Shown piece after piece: positions 7,925 to 33,055 of a DNA stretch of 64,000 bases; position 1 is the stretch's first letter, and each line of letters begins with the position of its first letter. The translations under genes were made by a program, and so were the position numbers. Source of the DNA: an uncultured Candidatus Saccharibacteria bacterium (GTDB taxonomy: Bacteria; Patescibacteriota; Minisyncoccia; Phycocordibacterales; UBA918); contig CAZSOS010000002.1 in the NCBI GenBank assembly GCA_964608605.1, positions 36,601 through 100,600 of the forward strand. Reading direction: 5' to 3'. The notes beneath the pieces were generated by a model that did no database searches, was not told the DNA's origin, and saw nothing but the letters and a program-made list of their open reading frames with translations.

Positions 7925-9385
<1,461 letters not shown>

Positions 9386-19461: not shown

Positions 19462-19482
19462 TATACTAGTCAGACTAGTATA
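19462..19482. repeat. REP-like 21-bp palindrome TATACTAGTCAGACTAGTATA (copy 1)
   Basis: Perfect palindrome of the same consensus as the copies flanking the RAYT gene at 32.1-33.1 kb. Confidence 0.8.
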
Positions 19483-24504: not shown

Positions 24505-24580
24505 TGGCTGGGGCGGAAGGAGTCGAACCAACACCTGAGGGATAGTACCCTCCGTTCTAACCGTTAAACTAAGCCCCAGC
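24505..24580 (-). tRNA. tRNA-like gene with a non-canonical anticodon loop (apparently 6 nt) and U-U pairs in the T-stem; possible pseudo-tRNA
   Basis: Hand fold gives a good acceptor stem, a D-arm and the T-loop TTCGACT, but the anticodon stem GAGGG/CCCTC encloses only 6 nt (TACTAT). The isotype cannot be assigned by hand. Confidence 0.35.
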
Positions 24581-24602
24581 AAAAGAACTTGAAACAAATT
24601 AT

Positions 24603-24680
24603 TGGTCGGAGCAACGGGATTTGAACCCGTGACCCCTGGCTACCCGAGCCTAGTGCGCTACCAGGCTGCGCTACACTCCG
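24603..24680 (-). tRNA. tRNA-Pro-like (D-arm identical to tRNA-Pro, loop CTCGGGT reading CGG), anticodon stem irregular
   Basis: Acceptor CGGAGTG/TGCTCCG plus A and CCA, D-arm GCGC-AGCCTGGTA-GCGC, T-arm ACGGG-TTCAAAT-CCCGT. The anticodon region CTAGG-CTCGGGT-AGCCA does not pair canonically. Confidence 0.5.
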
Positions 24681-24996
24681 ACCTAGAGTAGGTGATATTT
24701 TTATCTTCCTACTCAAAACCAGTTCCCCGCTGGTTTATTGTTCGCAGTCTAATTAAGACCGCTTCAGAATATCCAAGCTTGTCCCGTACCAAGACGAATG
24801 TCTTTGGTACGGGATATTTCGCACATCTTCTTACCAGGTTCACACTTCACCCAAAATCGTACAGCGATATCCAGCATTCCTTGCAGGAAATACGTCCGAT
24901 TAGTACTTCTCGGCTCAACGTATTACTACGCTTACACCTAAAGCCTATCAACCTAATCATCTCTTAGGGGACTTCATGATACCTAATCTCAGAGTT

Positions 24997-25029
<33 letters not shown>

Positions 25030-25171
25030 ATTCCCGACATAGCTACTGGGCAGTGCCGCTGGCGCGACAGCCCACAGACCAGAGGTCAGTTCATCCCGGT
25101 CCTCTCGTACTAGGGACAAATCTCTTCAAGTATCGACGCCTGCAGTAGATAGGAGACCAACCTGTCTCACG

Positions 25172-25530
25172 CAATAGTAGCTGATTAGCTTTTAGCACTT
25201 AGCTATTAGCCATTCAACGCCATCATTACTGACGGGATCGGACTGTAACTTAGCCGGTTCTCGGCTTCCGATATTCAGTCTCTACAAGTGCACGAGTAAA
25301 CTTTTTTGCCAGTTTTACTCTGCTTCTCTCGGTATTGCCCGCAACATTACTTGTTAGGGTTTTACCGATTTTAATCGGATCATATCACTGATATTCCTAT
25401 CAGTGACCGCCGTGTAGGTTGGTTCTTTTCTTTGTTCATAAACGAAAAGTAAAAACAATTCTTCGAAGGGGTTTAGACTGCTGAATTTCCCTTAGCCAAG
25501 AGCTAAGTGCTAATAACTAAGAGCTATTCA
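25172..25530 (-). mobile_element. 359-nt ORF-less insertion in 23S between GGGTTTAGACCGT and CGTGAGACAGG (E. coli ~2593, the I-CreI/I-CeuI homing site); group I intron candidate with TTAGC-repeat inverted ends
   Basis: Exon sequence is continuous across the insertion. The insertion ends are TTAGC-rich inverted repeats at 25178-25210 and 25497-25527. Confidence 0.55.
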
Positions 25531-26187
25531 ACGGTCTAAACCCAGCTCGCGTATCTTTTTAATTGGCGAACAGCCAAACCCTTGGGACCTGCTCCAGCCC
25601 CAGGATAAGATGAGCCGACATCGAGGTGCCGAACCGTGCCGTCGCTTTGGACGCTTGGGCACGACTAGCCTGTTATCCCCAGGGTAACTTTTATCGGGTA
25701 ATCTCCGGCGGCATCTAACGCCAACCATCGGTTCACTATGCTCCGCTTTCGCGTCTGTTCGGCATCTACGCCTTACAGTCAAGCCAACTTTTGCCATTGC
25801 ACTATCGGCACGGTTTCCATTCGCGCCTAGTTGACCTTGAGACCCCTCCGTTACATTTTGGGAGGGTAGCGCCCCACTAAAACTGCCTGCCACTCACTGT
25901 CCCCGCCGCGTTTGACGCGACGGGTTAGAAACTGCCCAATTTAAGATAGGTATTTCACTGACGACTCCACGGTACCCGAAAGCCCGCTTCAAAGTCTCCC
26001 TACTATGCTACGCATAAATCAAACAGCCCCAATAAGAAGCTACAGTAAAGCTCCTGGGGTCTCTTCGTCTAACTGCAGGTAGGCTGCATCTTCACAGCCA
26101 TTGTATTTTCACCGAGCAGGTCCTTGAGACAGTTTCCCAGTCGTTACGCCATTCGTGCACGTCGGAACTTACCCGACAAGGAATTGC

Positions 26188-26420
26188 GCTCTATAATTCC
26201 TTCTTTAATGTAGATACCCGCGTATCTACGTACACAATAGGACTCTATCTTCACCCTCTTATATACTAGTCAGACTAGTATAAAGGTGGGGTGTGCAACA
26301 TTTGGTCTCTTGTTGGTTGCAATTGGAAATACTAATGATTACTCACTAGTAAGGTAACTATGGCTCGGGCTGTTTAACTCTACAATCGTTCTAATCCGTA
26401 GAGCACACTTCCGAAGAAAC
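26188..26420 (-). mobile_element. ~233-nt ORF-less insertion in 23S between GGTAGAGCGC and (G)CAATTCCTTGTCGGG (E. coli ~1917 intron site); carries an internal REP-like palindrome
   Basis: Flanking exon sequence aligns to AACTATAACGGTCCTAAGGTAGCG|AAATTCCTTGTCGGG. Palindrome TATACTAGTCAGACTAGTATA lies at 26262-26282. A 7-nt direct repeat AGAGCGC sits at the junctions. Confidence 0.5.
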
Positions 26421-26647
26421 GCGCTCTACCTTAGAACGATTATAGTTATCGCTGACATTGACGGGGGCTTACACAGTCCAGCACCCAGCACCACTCTCAC
26501 AAACTTTGTTTGTGAAGATGGTGCTGGGCACCGCCCGTGCTTAACCTTCCCGCATTGGTCAGGCGTCACCCTCTATACATGGACTTACGTCTTCGCAGAG
26601 AGCTGTGTTTTTGTTAAACAGTCGCCAGGAAATCTTTCGCTGCGGCC

Positions 26648-26836
26648 GAGCGCATCACGCTACGCGCGATGACTAAATTCAAAATTGAAAAGTCAAAATG
26701 CAAAATTACAATGCAAAGTTCAAAATTTCGCTACGAACTCTATGAGTACGTGACGTAATTTTTACTTTTTATTTGTACTTTTGATTTTTGAGATTTTCCT
26801 TTTCAATTTAGCATCACATGCAATGTGATGCGCTCG
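26648..26836 (-). repeat. AT-rich IVS-like expansion in the 23S helix-63 region (copy A of a duplicated AT-rich element)
   Basis: Inserted between the complementary arms GAGCGCATCAC and GTGATGCGCTC. Contains a 47-nt segment (26689-26735) identical to 27405-27451. Confidence 0.6.
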
Positions 26837-27374
26837 GCAGGCCTTATCCCGAAGTTACGGCCGCTTTTTTGCCGAGTTCCTTAAGGACCCCTCACTCGTT
26901 CGCCTTGGTCTTCTCGACCCTACCACCTGTGTCGGTTTGCGGTACGGAACCACTATGCTTAACCCAAACGAAGTTTTTCTCGGAAGCGTGCTCCTTACAT
27001 TTCCTTGGCCGTAGCCGCAGATTCAGACTCTACTCGGATGATATCGCGCGGATTTGCCTACGCGACGTCCTCATAGCTCCAGCACCAATCCAATAAGATG
27101 CTGTAAGTACAACGCTCCGTCCCTCCATAGGAACATAGCAGTGTGCAGGAATATTAACCTGCTCTCCATCGCCTCCGGCGTTCGCCATCGGCTTAGGACC
27201 GACTAACCCTTCGCTGATCACCATCGCGAAGGAAACCTCGGTATTTCGGCGGACGGGGTTCTCACCCGTCTTGCGGTTACTTGTGCCGGCATTCTCACTT
27301 CGCATCGCTCCAGGTAGGGTCTCCCCCACCATTCATCGCAGATACGAACGCTCTCCTACCACTCAACGCACCTC

Positions 27375-27525
27375 ACAAAAGTTCGTTGCTAAAATAAAAA
27401 TGTAAAAGTCAAAATGCAAAATTACAATGCAAAGTTCAAAATTTCGCTACGTGCTATCCTGCGCGTTGCGTGATTTTGATTTTTGAGATTTCAATTTTCA
27501 ATTTAGCATCTCACCTCTGTGAGAT
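27375..27525 (-). repeat. AT-rich IVS-like expansion in 23S helix 45 (copy B)
   Basis: Inserted in the helix-45 stem CAGCGCATCTCAC/GTGAGGTGCGTTG, the site of the classical enterobacterial and Coxiella IVS. Shares the 47-nt repeat and the GATTTTTGAGATTT motif with copy A. Confidence 0.6.
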
Positions 27526-27615
27526 GCGCTGAATCCGCAGTTTCGGTAATATGCTTGAGCCCCGATCATCTTCGGCGCAAGGACTCTCGACCAGTGAGCT
27601 GTTACGCTTTCTTTA

Positions 27616-27650
<35 letters not shown>

Positions 27651-28210
27651 TAGAGAATCCTCACCTCCTCCAGATGCACTGAGCATATATTTAGGGACCT
27701 TAACTGGCGATCTGGGCTGTTCCCCTTTTGACCAATGGAGCTTCTCCCCCATAGTCTAACTGCCGAGCTATAATCTCTGGTATTCGGAGTTTGATAGGAA
27801 CAACGAGCTTTCGCCCTGTTTGTTCCTTCCAGTGCTCTACCCCCAGAGGGACCACTCGACGCCAACCCAAAAGCTGTTTCGGAGAGAACCAGCTATTACG
27901 GAAATCGATTAGCTTTTCACTCCTTACCACAAGTCATCCGATGGTTTTGTACGGCCAACCGGTTCGGGCCTCCACGAGGTTTTACCCTCGCTTCACCCTG
28001 CTCATGGCAAGCTCTTCCCGCTTCGGGTCGTACCCCAACTCCATATTCGCGCTATTCACGCTCGCTTTCACTGCGCCTCCGCGGGTTTTCCGCTTAGACA
28101 AGGAATTAAGGTACACTCGCCGGCTCATTCTTCAATAGGCACGCCGCAACCCCGAAAGGCCGCGACTCCTTGTAAGTGTATGGTTTCAGATCTATTTCAC
28201 TCCCCTCTCC

Positions 28211-28256
<46 letters not shown>

Positions 28257-28554
28257 TTAAAAGATATTTAGCCTTACCAGTTAGTGCTGGCAGATTCATC
28301 CGAGCTATTCATGTCTCGAACTACTCAGGAACAAGATCAACGGAGTCATATACATTTCAAATACGGGACTATTACCCACTGGGGTCGAGCTTCCCAACTC
28401 GTTCTTCTATATATATGTTTTGTAACTCCGCGCAACTAAATGCGGACCTTGCCCTACAACCCCGTAAATATTGCTATCAACGGTTTGGGCTATTCCCGTT
28501 TCGCTCGCCGCTACTAAGGGAATCGCGAGAACCTTCTTCCTGGTTTCAATGGCC

Positions 28555-28878
28555 CCAGCACCACTTTTTGGTTTCAATGGATTTGAGACGACTCACATCT
28601 TTTCAATAATTCTTGTTTGCCGCGACCATGTTGTTTAAGTCGCTGCTCACGCTTGTCCGCATCGTCTTTAGAACGGTATGCTTCTGCGTATATCAAGATC
28701 CATTTCCCTGATGTTCTGTGCGTAGACTTATTGCGTGAGCTATTATGCTCGCTAAGTCGTCGCCTCAAATCATTGGTTCTTCCAATGTAGATATCTCTAG
28801 TATCACTGTGTTGTATCACATAGACACTGTACATAATCCACATTGTATCAAAACCAAAAAGTGGTGCTGGGTAGTTTT
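28555..28878 (-). mobile_element. IVS-like element in 23S domain I (E. coli ~210) bounded by 21-bp perfect inverted repeats CCCAGCACCACTTTTTGGTTT; encodes a GIY-YIG protein
   Basis: Inverted repeats at 28555-28575 and 28858-28878. The flanking rRNA aligns to GAAAAGAAA...GATTCCC..AGTAGCGGCGAGCGAA. Confidence 0.65.
28574..28843 (-). CDS. GIY-YIG nuclease superfamily protein (89 aa) encoded inside the 23S rRNA gene
   Basis: YSVYVIQHSDTRDIYIGRTNDLRRRLSEHN carries the GIY...YIG motifs with conserved Arg and Glu. Confidence 0.6.
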   Translation of the reverse strand: MWIMYSVYVIQHSDTRDIYIGRTNDLRRRLSEHNSSRNKSTHRTSGKWILIYAEAYRSKDDADKREQRLKQHGRGKQELLKRCESSQIH

Positions 28879-29150
28879 AACCAGAAAGAAAGTTCCGTAT
28901 ATTGCTTTCTTTTCCTCTCGGTACTGAGATGTTTCACTTCCCGAGGTGTGCTCTCGCATAACGCGAGTTTCCGACGTAATCGGAAGGGTTTCCCCATTCG
29001 GAGATCTCCGGATCGAAGGTTGATTGTCACCTCCCCGAAGCTTATCGCAGACATTCTACGTCCTTCATCGCTCTTTTAAGCCAAGGCATCCACCATACAC
29101 CCTTACATTCCTGCAAGGAATGCTGTACACCGCTGTACGATTCTGATCAT

Positions 29151-31840: not shown

Positions 31841-31913
31841 CGGGGTATCGTATAGTGGTAGTATGCACGCATGGGGTGCGTGTAGCGTCGGTTCGATTCC
31901 GGCTACCCCGACC
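31841..31913 (+). tRNA. tRNA-Pro (anticodon GGG)
   Basis: Acceptor CGGGGTA/TACCCCG, D-arm GTAT-AGTGGTA-GTAT, anticodon arm CACGC-ATGGGGT-GCGTG, T-arm GTCGG-TTCGATT-CCGGC. The acceptor stem is extended a further 8 bp by the flanks AAAAACCAAGGT/ACCTTGGTTTTT. Confidence 0.7.
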
Positions 31914-32074: not shown

Positions 32075-32118
32075 TATACCAGTCAGACTAGTATATTTAT
32101 ACTAGTCTGACTGGTATT
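32075..32118. repeat. REP-like palindrome doublet (TATACCAGTCAGACTAGTATA then TATACTAGTCTGACTGGTATA) at the 3' end of the RAYT gene
   Basis: Two adjacent 21-bp palindromes in opposite polarity, a BIME-like arrangement. Confidence 0.8.
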
Positions 32119-32815: not shown

Positions 32816-32836
32816 ATATACCAGTCTGACTAGTAT
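32816..32836. repeat. REP-like palindrome TATACCAGTCTGACTAGTATA immediately upstream of the RAYT start
   Basis: Same 21-bp consensus as the other copies. Confidence 0.8.
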
Positions 32837-32974
32837 ATATTTATTGTTTTGTTGATAGCTTTCACCTAGCCTGTGGCGCCGACGATGAGGACGATGAAGA
32901 GGCCGACAGTGATGACGATAAGGAAACTGAAGAGGAATTTGTAGAAAGTTGAGTTGAACATGAGTTTGATTATA

Positions 32975-33011: not shown

Positions 33012-33055
33012 TATACCAGTCTGACTAGCATAAATATACTAGTCTGACTGGTATA
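33012..33055. repeat. REP-like palindrome doublet (TATACCAGTCTGACTAGCATA then TATACTAGTCTGACTGGTATA)
   Basis: Second BIME-like doublet, about 200 bp upstream of the RAYT gene. Confidence 0.75.

Follow-up and report, generated by a model that had tools for sequence, protein, structure and literature searches.

The 64-kb stretch of DNA analysed here (the window) contains a 23S rRNA gene on the minus strand, 24879–29116, which is 4238 nt long, compared with 2925 nt for the model. An insert in this gene contains a REP palindrome. The locus raises the question of whether REP hairpins can move into an intron of an essential rRNA gene or whether the insert is itself a REP-related mobile unit directed at a conserved rRNA site; an earlier note on this DNA had put forward both readings.

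Position and limits of the insert

According to a global alignment to E. coli rrlH, a 237-nt insert (26191–26427, minus strand) is located directly after E. coli U1931. The insertion site is L1931. The earlier note had named L1917, which is wrong according to both the rrlH alignment and a numbering by hand from the modified positions ψ1911, ψ1915, ψ1917 and m5U1939; this numbering agrees with L1931. In the established structure of the ribosome, H69 and H71 flank the L1931 site at the subunit interface. The exon end and the intron are as follows:

26428–26441, minus strand: end of the 5′ exon, E. coli 1918–1931, AAUCGUUCUAAGGU (rrlH alignment); its first 10 nt are segment a, which pairs with intron strand a′, and its last 4 nt (AGGU) are segment b, which pairs with the guide sequence
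26191–26427, minus strand: intron (rrlH alignment; match to Rfam Intron_gpI; match to covariance model R1, described below)

Read as RNA, the two junctions are ...CUAAGGU/AGAGCGCG...AAUUAUAG/AGCGCAAUUCC, where slashes mark the splice sites. The last nucleotide of the 5′ exon is U; the intron, which is 237 nt long and contains no ORF, ends in G (ωG at 26191), giving GGU/AGAG...AUAG/AGCG. The exons joined at these limits, GGU/AGCGCAAUUCC, reproduce the exon sequence of the closest CPR relatives among the matches listed (L020, L053 and L070). A shift of the limits by +1 is ruled out because the first intron nucleotide would have to equal the exon A and most relatives begin with U; a shift by −1 is excluded because the last intron nucleotide (G) differs from the last exon nucleotide (U). 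Among the matches listed, the 23S exons of the window are most similar to those of a Saccharibacteria MAG (87.6%), followed by other CPR loci; a CPR bacterium is accordingly the most likely host. The large insert reported earlier does interrupt the 23S gene, but its limits have been moved and its length is 237 nt (26191–26427) rather than 233 nt; the 233-nt limits would keep four surplus bases in the mature rRNA.

Copies of the heptamer AGAGCGC (plus strand: GCGCTCT) are present at 26421–26427 and 26186–26192, so the earlier observation of a 7-nt direct repeat at the two ends holds as far as the sequence is concerned; it is not a target-site duplication. The copies are asymmetric about the junctions: one comprises intron nucleotides 1–7 and the other the last two intron nucleotides and the first five exon nucleotides. 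Among 68 relatives, resemblance between the two heptamers is a trend in one subfamily only, of which the window is the extreme case. A target-site duplication was dropped as an explanation, since the repeat includes intron nucleotides 1–7 and reflects a mere subfamily trend. Mimicry of P10 was also dropped, given that the trend is confined to the subfamily and that the proper P10 adjoins the guide sequence.

A family of small introns at L1931

One genome per species was scanned for any insert ending in G before A1932, which yielded at least 120 loci. Most of these are ordinary L1931 group I introns of 250–790 nt; at least five are small inserts (178–254 nt) like that of the window, all in CPR hosts (a Saccharibacteria MAG, a Nomurabacteria MAG, two Paceibacterota MAGs and a Kaiserbacteria MAG). 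A scan of metagenomes with a pattern derived from the shared core supplied further members. After removal of duplicates, the genome and metagenome scans together gave at least 68 distinct small L1931 introns, 178–262 nt in length, which constitute alignment A1; the members with a named host (5/5) all belong to CPR bacteria. Since the search patterns partly prescribed P7, J8/7 and the terminal G, the invariance of these elements is not independent evidence; the metagenome pattern also biases the family towards one P7/J8/7 sequence.

Covariance model R1, which spans the intron from the guide sequence to the 3′ end, was built from 48 relatives, with the window and its nearest relative (L230) left out. 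It matches the window at 26188–26360 (minus strand) over its full length, model positions 1–124, with a score of 83.3 bits and an E-value of 1.6e-18; the sole other match in the 64-kb window has 12 bits. The insert of the window belongs to this family of reduced L1931 introns.

Secondary structure and covariation

The structural elements of the intron and of its 3′ junction are listed below in RNA order:

26400–26427, minus strand: hairpin H5, the first 28 intron nucleotides, 12 bp with a UUCG loop (sequence, MFE fold and RNAalifold)
26384–26397, minus strand: strand c, GGAU (26394–26397), followed by strand a′, UAGAACGAUU (26384–26393)
26352–26358, minus strand: internal guide sequence GUU-ACCU, forming P1 with exon AGGU and P10 with 3′-exon AGC
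26331–26350, minus strand: hairpin P2, 8 bp with a GUAA tetraloop (MFE fold)
26325–26328, minus strand: strand c′, UUCC, the partner of c (family covariation)
26294–26321, minus strand: P3, UGCAAC (26316–26321) with GUUGCA (26294–26299), enclosing only CAACAAGAGACCAAAU
26305–26309, minus strand: 5′ strand of P7, within CAACAAGAGACCAAAU, the P3 loop
26252–26293, minus strand: P8, a proximal stem CACCC/GGGUG and a distal extension made by the REP (MFE fold)
26240–26251, minus strand: J8/7 (AAGAUAGA) and the 3′ strand of P7 (GUCC), which fit the Rfam group I consensus AAGAUAUAGUC
26210–26229, minus strand: hairpin P9, 8 bp with a GCGG loop, present in the closest subfamily only
26188–26194, minus strand: 3′ end, comprising the 3′ strand of P9.0 (AUA, 26192–26194; partner UAU, 26237–26239), ωG (26191) and 3′-exon AGC, the partner in P10

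Across the 68 sequences of A1, the nine-helix structure pairs 94.9% of cells, compared with 34–42% when the 3′ partners are slid by 1–3 columns. Changes on both sides are found at 32 of 48 pairs, and the observed values were reached in 0 of 500 shuffles. RNAalifold, run independently, recovers a–a′, H5, P2, P3, P8, P9.0 and P10. The distal parts of variable hairpins are misaligned by MAFFT, which lowers the apparent pairing of H5; this hairpin shows covariation at 6/6 tested pairs. The family structure accounts for the whole 237-nt intron except the 21-nt REP.

The 5′ splice site is contacted by two intron strands. Strand a′ is complementary in ten pairs to exon positions 1918–1927, which form the 3′ strand of helix 69. 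In the 68 sequences a–a′ is 97.8% paired, and four of its pairs change on both sides in step with the H69 sequence of the host; the exon-binding strand and helix 69 occur in the combinations AAUCGUUC/GAACGAUU, AACGGUCC/GGACUGUU and AACCGUCC/GGACGGUU. The second contact is made by the guide sequence, whose ACCU pairs with exon AGGU (P1) in 68/68 sequences; UACCU is invariant in all 68. P10 is formed by G(C/U)U with the first three nucleotides of the 3′ exon, AGC, and was predicted by RNAalifold unprompted (columns 211–213 with 414–416). With the exon sequences fixed, covariation is impossible in P1 and P10. This arrangement of the guide sequence (P1 with P10) is the classic one of group I introns, and the segment is homologous to GUUGCCU in relatives that have P4–P6.

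Helix c–c′, consisting of four pairs that cross a–a′, is 95.6% paired with three compensatory pairs; its variants across the family include GGAC/GUCC, GGAU/AUCC, UGAC/GUCA and GAAC/GUUC. The window's own c–c′ has just three good pairs. An early model of P1, in which the splice-site U stood opposite the GG of ACGGA, was dropped since those bases covary with the downstream strand of c–c′. As traced on paper, a–a′, P1, P2 and c–c′ could close into a four-way junction.

In the remainder of the intron, compensatory change is seen at 7/7 tested pairs of P2, which has a GNRA cap in the family, and at 6/6 pairs of P3, which is 98.5% paired. P7 is present as GAC/GUC plus a G–C pair, and the proximal pairs of P8 covary across the family. 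J8/7 AAGAUAGA is invariant in the family, yet the search pattern had fixed it. In L230, L146, L200 and L137 the P9 sequences differ and the pairing of the stem is kept. P9.0, which directly precedes the terminal G, comprises three pairs, 100% paired and all compensatory; a C–ωG pair was also predicted by RNAalifold.

Absence of P4–P6 and of the splice-site wobble pair

P4–P6 is regarded as one half of the catalytic core of group I introns, and the U·G wobble as the universal mark of the 5′ splice site. The small L1931 introns have neither. Just 8 nt separate the 5′ strand of P3 from P7, and the P4–P6 domain is absent; in the Rfam alignment, the 81 model positions of this domain are replaced by 1 nt. 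The sole variable stretch of the intron, between a′ and the guide sequence, measures 25–26 nt in the window and in the smallest members, which is too short to house the domain. The base opposite the splice-site U is A in 68/68 sequences (columns 14/214), making a U–A pair instead of a U·G wobble. Since both features are missing, self-splicing may be weak or need help.

The Rfam model Intron_gpI (RF00028) matches the window with 24.1 bits over 26219–26386, the gathering threshold being 50; the alignment covers P3, P7, P8 and J8/7. In four other members of the family no match to this model was found at E ≤ 0.1. Several larger relatives share the 5′ part of the small introns: L029, L044, L019 and L061 possess the same 5′ hairpin, exon-binding strand, P2 and c–c′ along with a normal P4–P6 and, often, a LAGLIDADG-type ORF, and L234 also has the same 5′ domain with a normal P4–P6. 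Because of these shared parts, the small family looks like a deletion derivative of a lineage bearing P4–P6.

In two introns from metagenome contigs, L234 (625 nt) and L168 (301 nt), a U–A splice-site pair (guide UACCU) is combined with an intact P4–P6. They may be intermediates linking canonical introns to the reduced family. As these two introns have U–A plus P4–P6, loss of the wobble does not simply follow from loss of P4–P6, and the idea that both features were lost jointly is weakened.

Judged by its sequence, the insert is an element of group I descent, most probably with group I chemistry, that lacks two defining structural features and scores below the curated threshold.

Proposed splicing and its alternatives

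In the proposed mechanism, the 7-nt guide G(C/U)U-ACCU would contact both exons, forming P1 with the final four nucleotides of the 5′ exon and P10 with the initial three of the 3′ exon. Ten further 5′-exon nucleotides, which make up the 3′ strand of helix 69, would be held by the second intron strand. The guanosine-binding core would consist of P3, P7, P8 and J8/7, and the 3′ splice site would be set by P9.0 and the terminal G. Two guanosine-initiated transesterifications, carried out by the intron alone or with a helper, would then remove the intron and ligate the exons. Excision by group I chemistry is somewhat favoured by the sequence data.

Compensatory change is dense in the exon-binding strand, P3 and P9.0, which indicates that group I-type recognition of the two splice sites is still under selection. 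The invariance of the guide sequence and of the terminal G, the latter partly fixed by the search pattern, also points to continuing selection. CPR genomes often have a single rRNA operon (PMC11270868). The intron is probably excised and the exons ligated, because a 237-nt insert retained at the subunit interface would be hard to tolerate, the rRNA operon often being the only one.

Splicing that needs no helper can be suggested tentatively. A slightly less likely course, and on balance a doubtful one, is that the same intron depends on a helper, either a protein scaffold or maturase or a P4–P6 supplied in trans by another group I intron. Such dependence would fit the absence of P4–P6 and the U–A splice-site pair; engineered introns without P4–P6 keep only weak activity, and proteins such as CYT-18 stand in for missing RNA scaffolds. 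A potential donor is at hand in the window, where the same 23S gene has a second group I-like insert at L2593. Against such a donor, the 3190-nt 23S gene that houses the L053 member of the family (207 nt) shows no second group I match. As this member is the only group I-like element there, a general helper cannot be a sister intron of the same rRNA. The analysis brought up no candidate for a helper protein either.

It is improbable that the insert is a decayed, unspliced intron, either retained in the rRNA or excised by RNase so as to leave a fragmented 23S in the manner of an IVS. The L1931 intron of Simkania is reportedly kept in the rRNA. The Rfam score of the window intron below threshold, the lost core domain and the lost wobble pair would suit decay; a–a′ and H5 form a long, near-continuous duplex that could be a substrate of RNase III, and IVS-like inserts occur elsewhere in the same gene. 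However, the compensatory change in P9.0, the exon-binding strand and P3 is dense across the 68 sequences, which is expected only with splice-site recognition of the group I type. In addition, the insert lacks the pairing between its two ends that is typical of an IVS, and a retained 237-nt insert between H69 and H71 is unlikely to be tolerated.

The REP palindrome and the RAYT-like gene

The palindrome TATACTAGTCAGACTAGTATA and its close variants occur at seven places in the 64-kb window, compared with 0 expected from shuffles. The copies and the associated gene are:

19462–19482, 26262–26282, 32075, 32098, 32817–32837, 33012 and 33035: REP copies (repeat search of the window)
26262–26282, unstranded: REP copy TATACTAGTCAGACTAGTATA of the intron, at the tip of P8
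32117–32806, minus strand: RAYT-like HUH/Tyr transposase gene, 229 aa (Pfam Y1_Tnp, 29.9 bits, cut-off 23)

Two pairs of copies are inverted doublets (32075–32118 and 33012–33055), and several copies lie in promoter-like intergenic spacers. The copy in the intron is identical (21/21) to that at 19462–19482, and AAG follows both. The RAYT-like ORF is flanked by the doublet 32075–32118 and the copy 32817–32837, and is located 5.7 kb from the intron. Its motifs are HFHLL (HUH) and AAYVMVKN (Tyr); the best NCBIfam match is REP_Tyr_transpos, with 29.3 bits, under the cut-off of 80. Look-ups of identical proteins gave no record for this ORF or for the ribosomal protein L10 of the window.

It is very unlikely that the palindrome is not a mobile REP, being instead a protein-binding operator or a P8 hairpin that has become similar by convergence. 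The core GTC-N-GAC resembles GntR-type operator half-sites, and the position of several copies in promoter-like spacers would suit an operator. An operator has, however, no evident role within an rRNA intron. Inverted doublets flanking an HUH/Tyr transposase-like ORF are the classic RAYT layout, and the 21/21 match to the copy at 19462 extends to the AAG that follows both; as to convergence, the P8 of relatives has an unrelated GNRA cap. The GntR-type operator, considered at an earlier stage, was set aside in favour of REP/RAYT after the Pfam Y1_Tnp match.

Within a census limited to 64 kb, the sequence evidence indicates that the palindrome is a genuine REP, probably of a RAYT-type system in the same genome. 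The earlier designation of the palindrome at 26262–26282 as a REP is thereby borne out by the seven loci in the window and by the RAYT-like gene flanked by copies. The window thus also provides an instance of a REP/RAYT-like system in an apparent CPR genome, with inverted doublets around a gene for a 229-aa HUH/Tyr transposase-like protein. No RAYT literature tied to CPR bacteria or to rRNA introns was found in open-access text.

The REP copy in P8

In the MFE fold the REP makes the distal half of P8, and R1 treats it as an insertion in the P8 loop. The nearest relative of the window intron among the matches listed, L230, comes from a metagenome contig of 14.5 kb showing synteny with the window; the rRNA exons of the two are about 92% identical and the flanking genes 66–69%. 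The L230 intron has 220 nt and is otherwise the same, differing essentially only at the tip of P8 and in P9. P8 reads CACCU-UUAUACUAGUCUGACUAGUAUAUA-AGAGGGUG in the window and CACCU-AGCAAU-AGAGGGUG, with a GNRA loop, in L230; elsewhere in the subfamily, P8 is likewise closed by AGCAAU or AGUAAU. The REP was found in 0 of the 240 loci fetched, and the palindrome is absent from all relatives, at least 67 introns. The proximal pairs of P8, which are conserved in the family, are unaffected by the REP.

The presence of the same intron with a GNRA loop in L230 argues that the intron is not derived from the REP and that the REP entered at the tip of P8. The simplest reading of these sequences is that this entry was recent and took place in the window's lineage only; for the direction of the event, the evidence is one close relative together with the family consensus. 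The 21-nt REP would have taken the place of the GNRA loop in this lineage alone. As it would only lengthen a peripheral hairpin, it should be neutral for splicing.

The converse idea, that the insert itself is a REP-related mobile unit aimed at a conserved rRNA site and IStron-like in spirit, would draw on the REP inside the insert, the RAYT-like gene 5.7 kb away and the 7-nt repeat at the junctions, but it can hardly be correct, as the same intron occurs without a REP in 67 relatives, the closest of them differs essentially only at the P8 tip and P9, the REP makes up 21 of 237 nt, the insert has no transposase or TnpB gene and the heptamer, being intron nucleotides 1–7 and a subfamily trend, is not a target duplication.

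Of the two readings in the earlier note, the insertion of REP hairpins into an rRNA intron is supported: the element is repeated, it lies at the tip of P8, L230 has a GNRA loop there and R1 sees a loop insertion. The reading of the insert as a REP-related unit is refuted by the palindrome-free relatives, at least 67 in number, and by its absence from the 240 loci. The same note had allowed for a canonical small group I intron with the palindrome in a peripheral loop; the location of the palindrome agrees with this, but an intron that lacks P4–P6 and falls under the Rfam threshold is not of the canonical kind. Taken together, the insert is very probably a reduced, ORF-less L1931 intron of group I descent whose P8 was entered by a REP; both the identity and the direction of the event are included in this assessment.

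In another member of the family, at L076:2857–3132 (Paceibacterota MAG), P8 is a perfect 17-bp palindrome, UCCCGGAUCGUUCUUAU-AAA-AUAAGAACGAUCCGGGA. It might be another hairpin element that has landed in P8. No repeat of this palindrome was found within its 8-kb locus.

Other features of the rRNA locus

The 23S gene contains several further inserts, all on the minus strand. One of 359 nt (25172–25530) follows E. coli position 2593, the I-CreI-type site. It shows a sub-threshold Rfam group I match of 31 bits at 25219–25466 in a wide scan, and no group I match in a narrow Rfam scan. Two IVS-like inserts are located at 27372–27523 (after E. coli 1174) and 26626–26834 (within 1710–1769). They have about 100 nt of AT-rich sequence in common, GCTAAATTGAAAA...TCTCAAAAATCAAAA...CGTAGCGAAATTTTGAACTTTGCATTGTAATTTTGCATTTTGACTTTT, and it seems from this shared sequence that the same element entered two different helices. 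A 375-nt insert is located near the 5′ end of the gene, at approximately 28527–28901 (Rfam model position about 228).

Two tRNA-like genes are found between 23S and 5S (24505–24680), one for tRNA-Pro(GGG) and one for an odd ‘tRNA-Ser’ whose anticodon is ACT. Another tRNA-Pro(GGG), different from the first, is located 7 kb away (31841–31913). The 16S gene (7925–9384) is unlinked from the 23S and 5S genes.

Significance and comparison with known systems

A conserved family lacking P4–P6 and the U·G pair would give ribozyme research a natural minimal system and permit a direct test of why these two features are needed. Some of the CPR rRNA inserts that Rfam-based surveys left unclassified would be accounted for as well. 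A REP in an rRNA intron would mean that RAYT-driven hairpins can enter the gene of an essential RNA by way of a safe peripheral intron loop, and a REP/RAYT-like system is documented in a CPR genome. A broader proposal, put forward tentatively from the sequences, is that the family represents a natural and widespread class of group I introns that would splice without P4–P6 and U·G, with an extended exon-binding strand and a four-helix junction (a–a′, P1, P2 and c–c′) placing the substrate; members of about 180 nt would be the smallest known self-splicing introns, and the class would tolerate a REP in P8.

The minimal catalytic domain P3–P9 of the T4 td intron is an engineered ribozyme without P4–P6, with weak activity under forcing conditions. 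In such engineered ribozymes, P1/P2, P3, P7, P8 and P9 remain, as in the small L1931 introns. The engineered forms are laboratory deletions, whereas the small L1931 family is natural, conserved and widespread. No description of a natural intron family without P4–P6 was found in open-access full text.

Additional 23S sequence in a bacterium with several other rRNA inserts is a trait shared with the IVSs removed by RNase III. IVSs replace the loops of helices 9, 25, 45 and similar ones and form one long stem from both ends. The insert of the window, by contrast, is located in a conserved single-stranded joint, its 5′ end folds as H5 and its 3′ end pairs in P9.0.

IStrons combine a group I intron with a transposon of the IS200/IS605 family, and the window likewise joins a group I-type intron with a product of the HUH/Y1 transposase world. 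Unlike IStrons, the window intron has no tnpA, tnpB or ORF; only a 21-nt hairpin is involved, and it is absent from relatives. The REP/RAYT (REPIN) systems of Proteobacteria also feature an imperfect palindrome of about 21 nt, intergenic singlets and inverted doublets, and a flanked HUH/Tyr (IS200-like) transposase gene, to which the RAYT-like gene of the window would correspond. The system of the window differs in its CPR host, in its distant protein (29 bits against the NCBIfam cut-off of 80) and in the presence of one copy in a 23S intron. No description of REP/RAYT in CPR bacteria or inside an rRNA intron was found in open-access text.

The closest known systems are the canonical introns of the same site. 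Group I introns are already known at L1931 from Thermotoga, Simkania, cyanobacteria and CPR bacteria (PMC1995217, PMC11270868). A survey of CPR bacteria classified inserts by Rfam at E ≤ 1e-5 and left about 55% of the 23S inserts unclassified; it makes no mention of introns without P4–P6 (PMC11270868). The canonical L1931 introns, such as the I-ShaI intron (PMC11270868; PMC1995217), share with the small family the site after U1931 and the place of the guide sequence (GUUGCCU versus GUUACCU). They also share the AGUAAU loop of P2, the P3/P7 pseudoknot, P8, J8/7 AAGAUAGAGUCC, P9.0 and the terminal G; some of them (L044, L019, L029, L061 and L234) have, in addition, the 5′ hairpin and the strand pairing with helix 69. 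The small family differs from them in having no P4–P6 (8 nt between P3 and P7), no ORF and no U·G pair, which is replaced by U–A, as well as in its length of 178–262 nt and its Rfam scores under the threshold.
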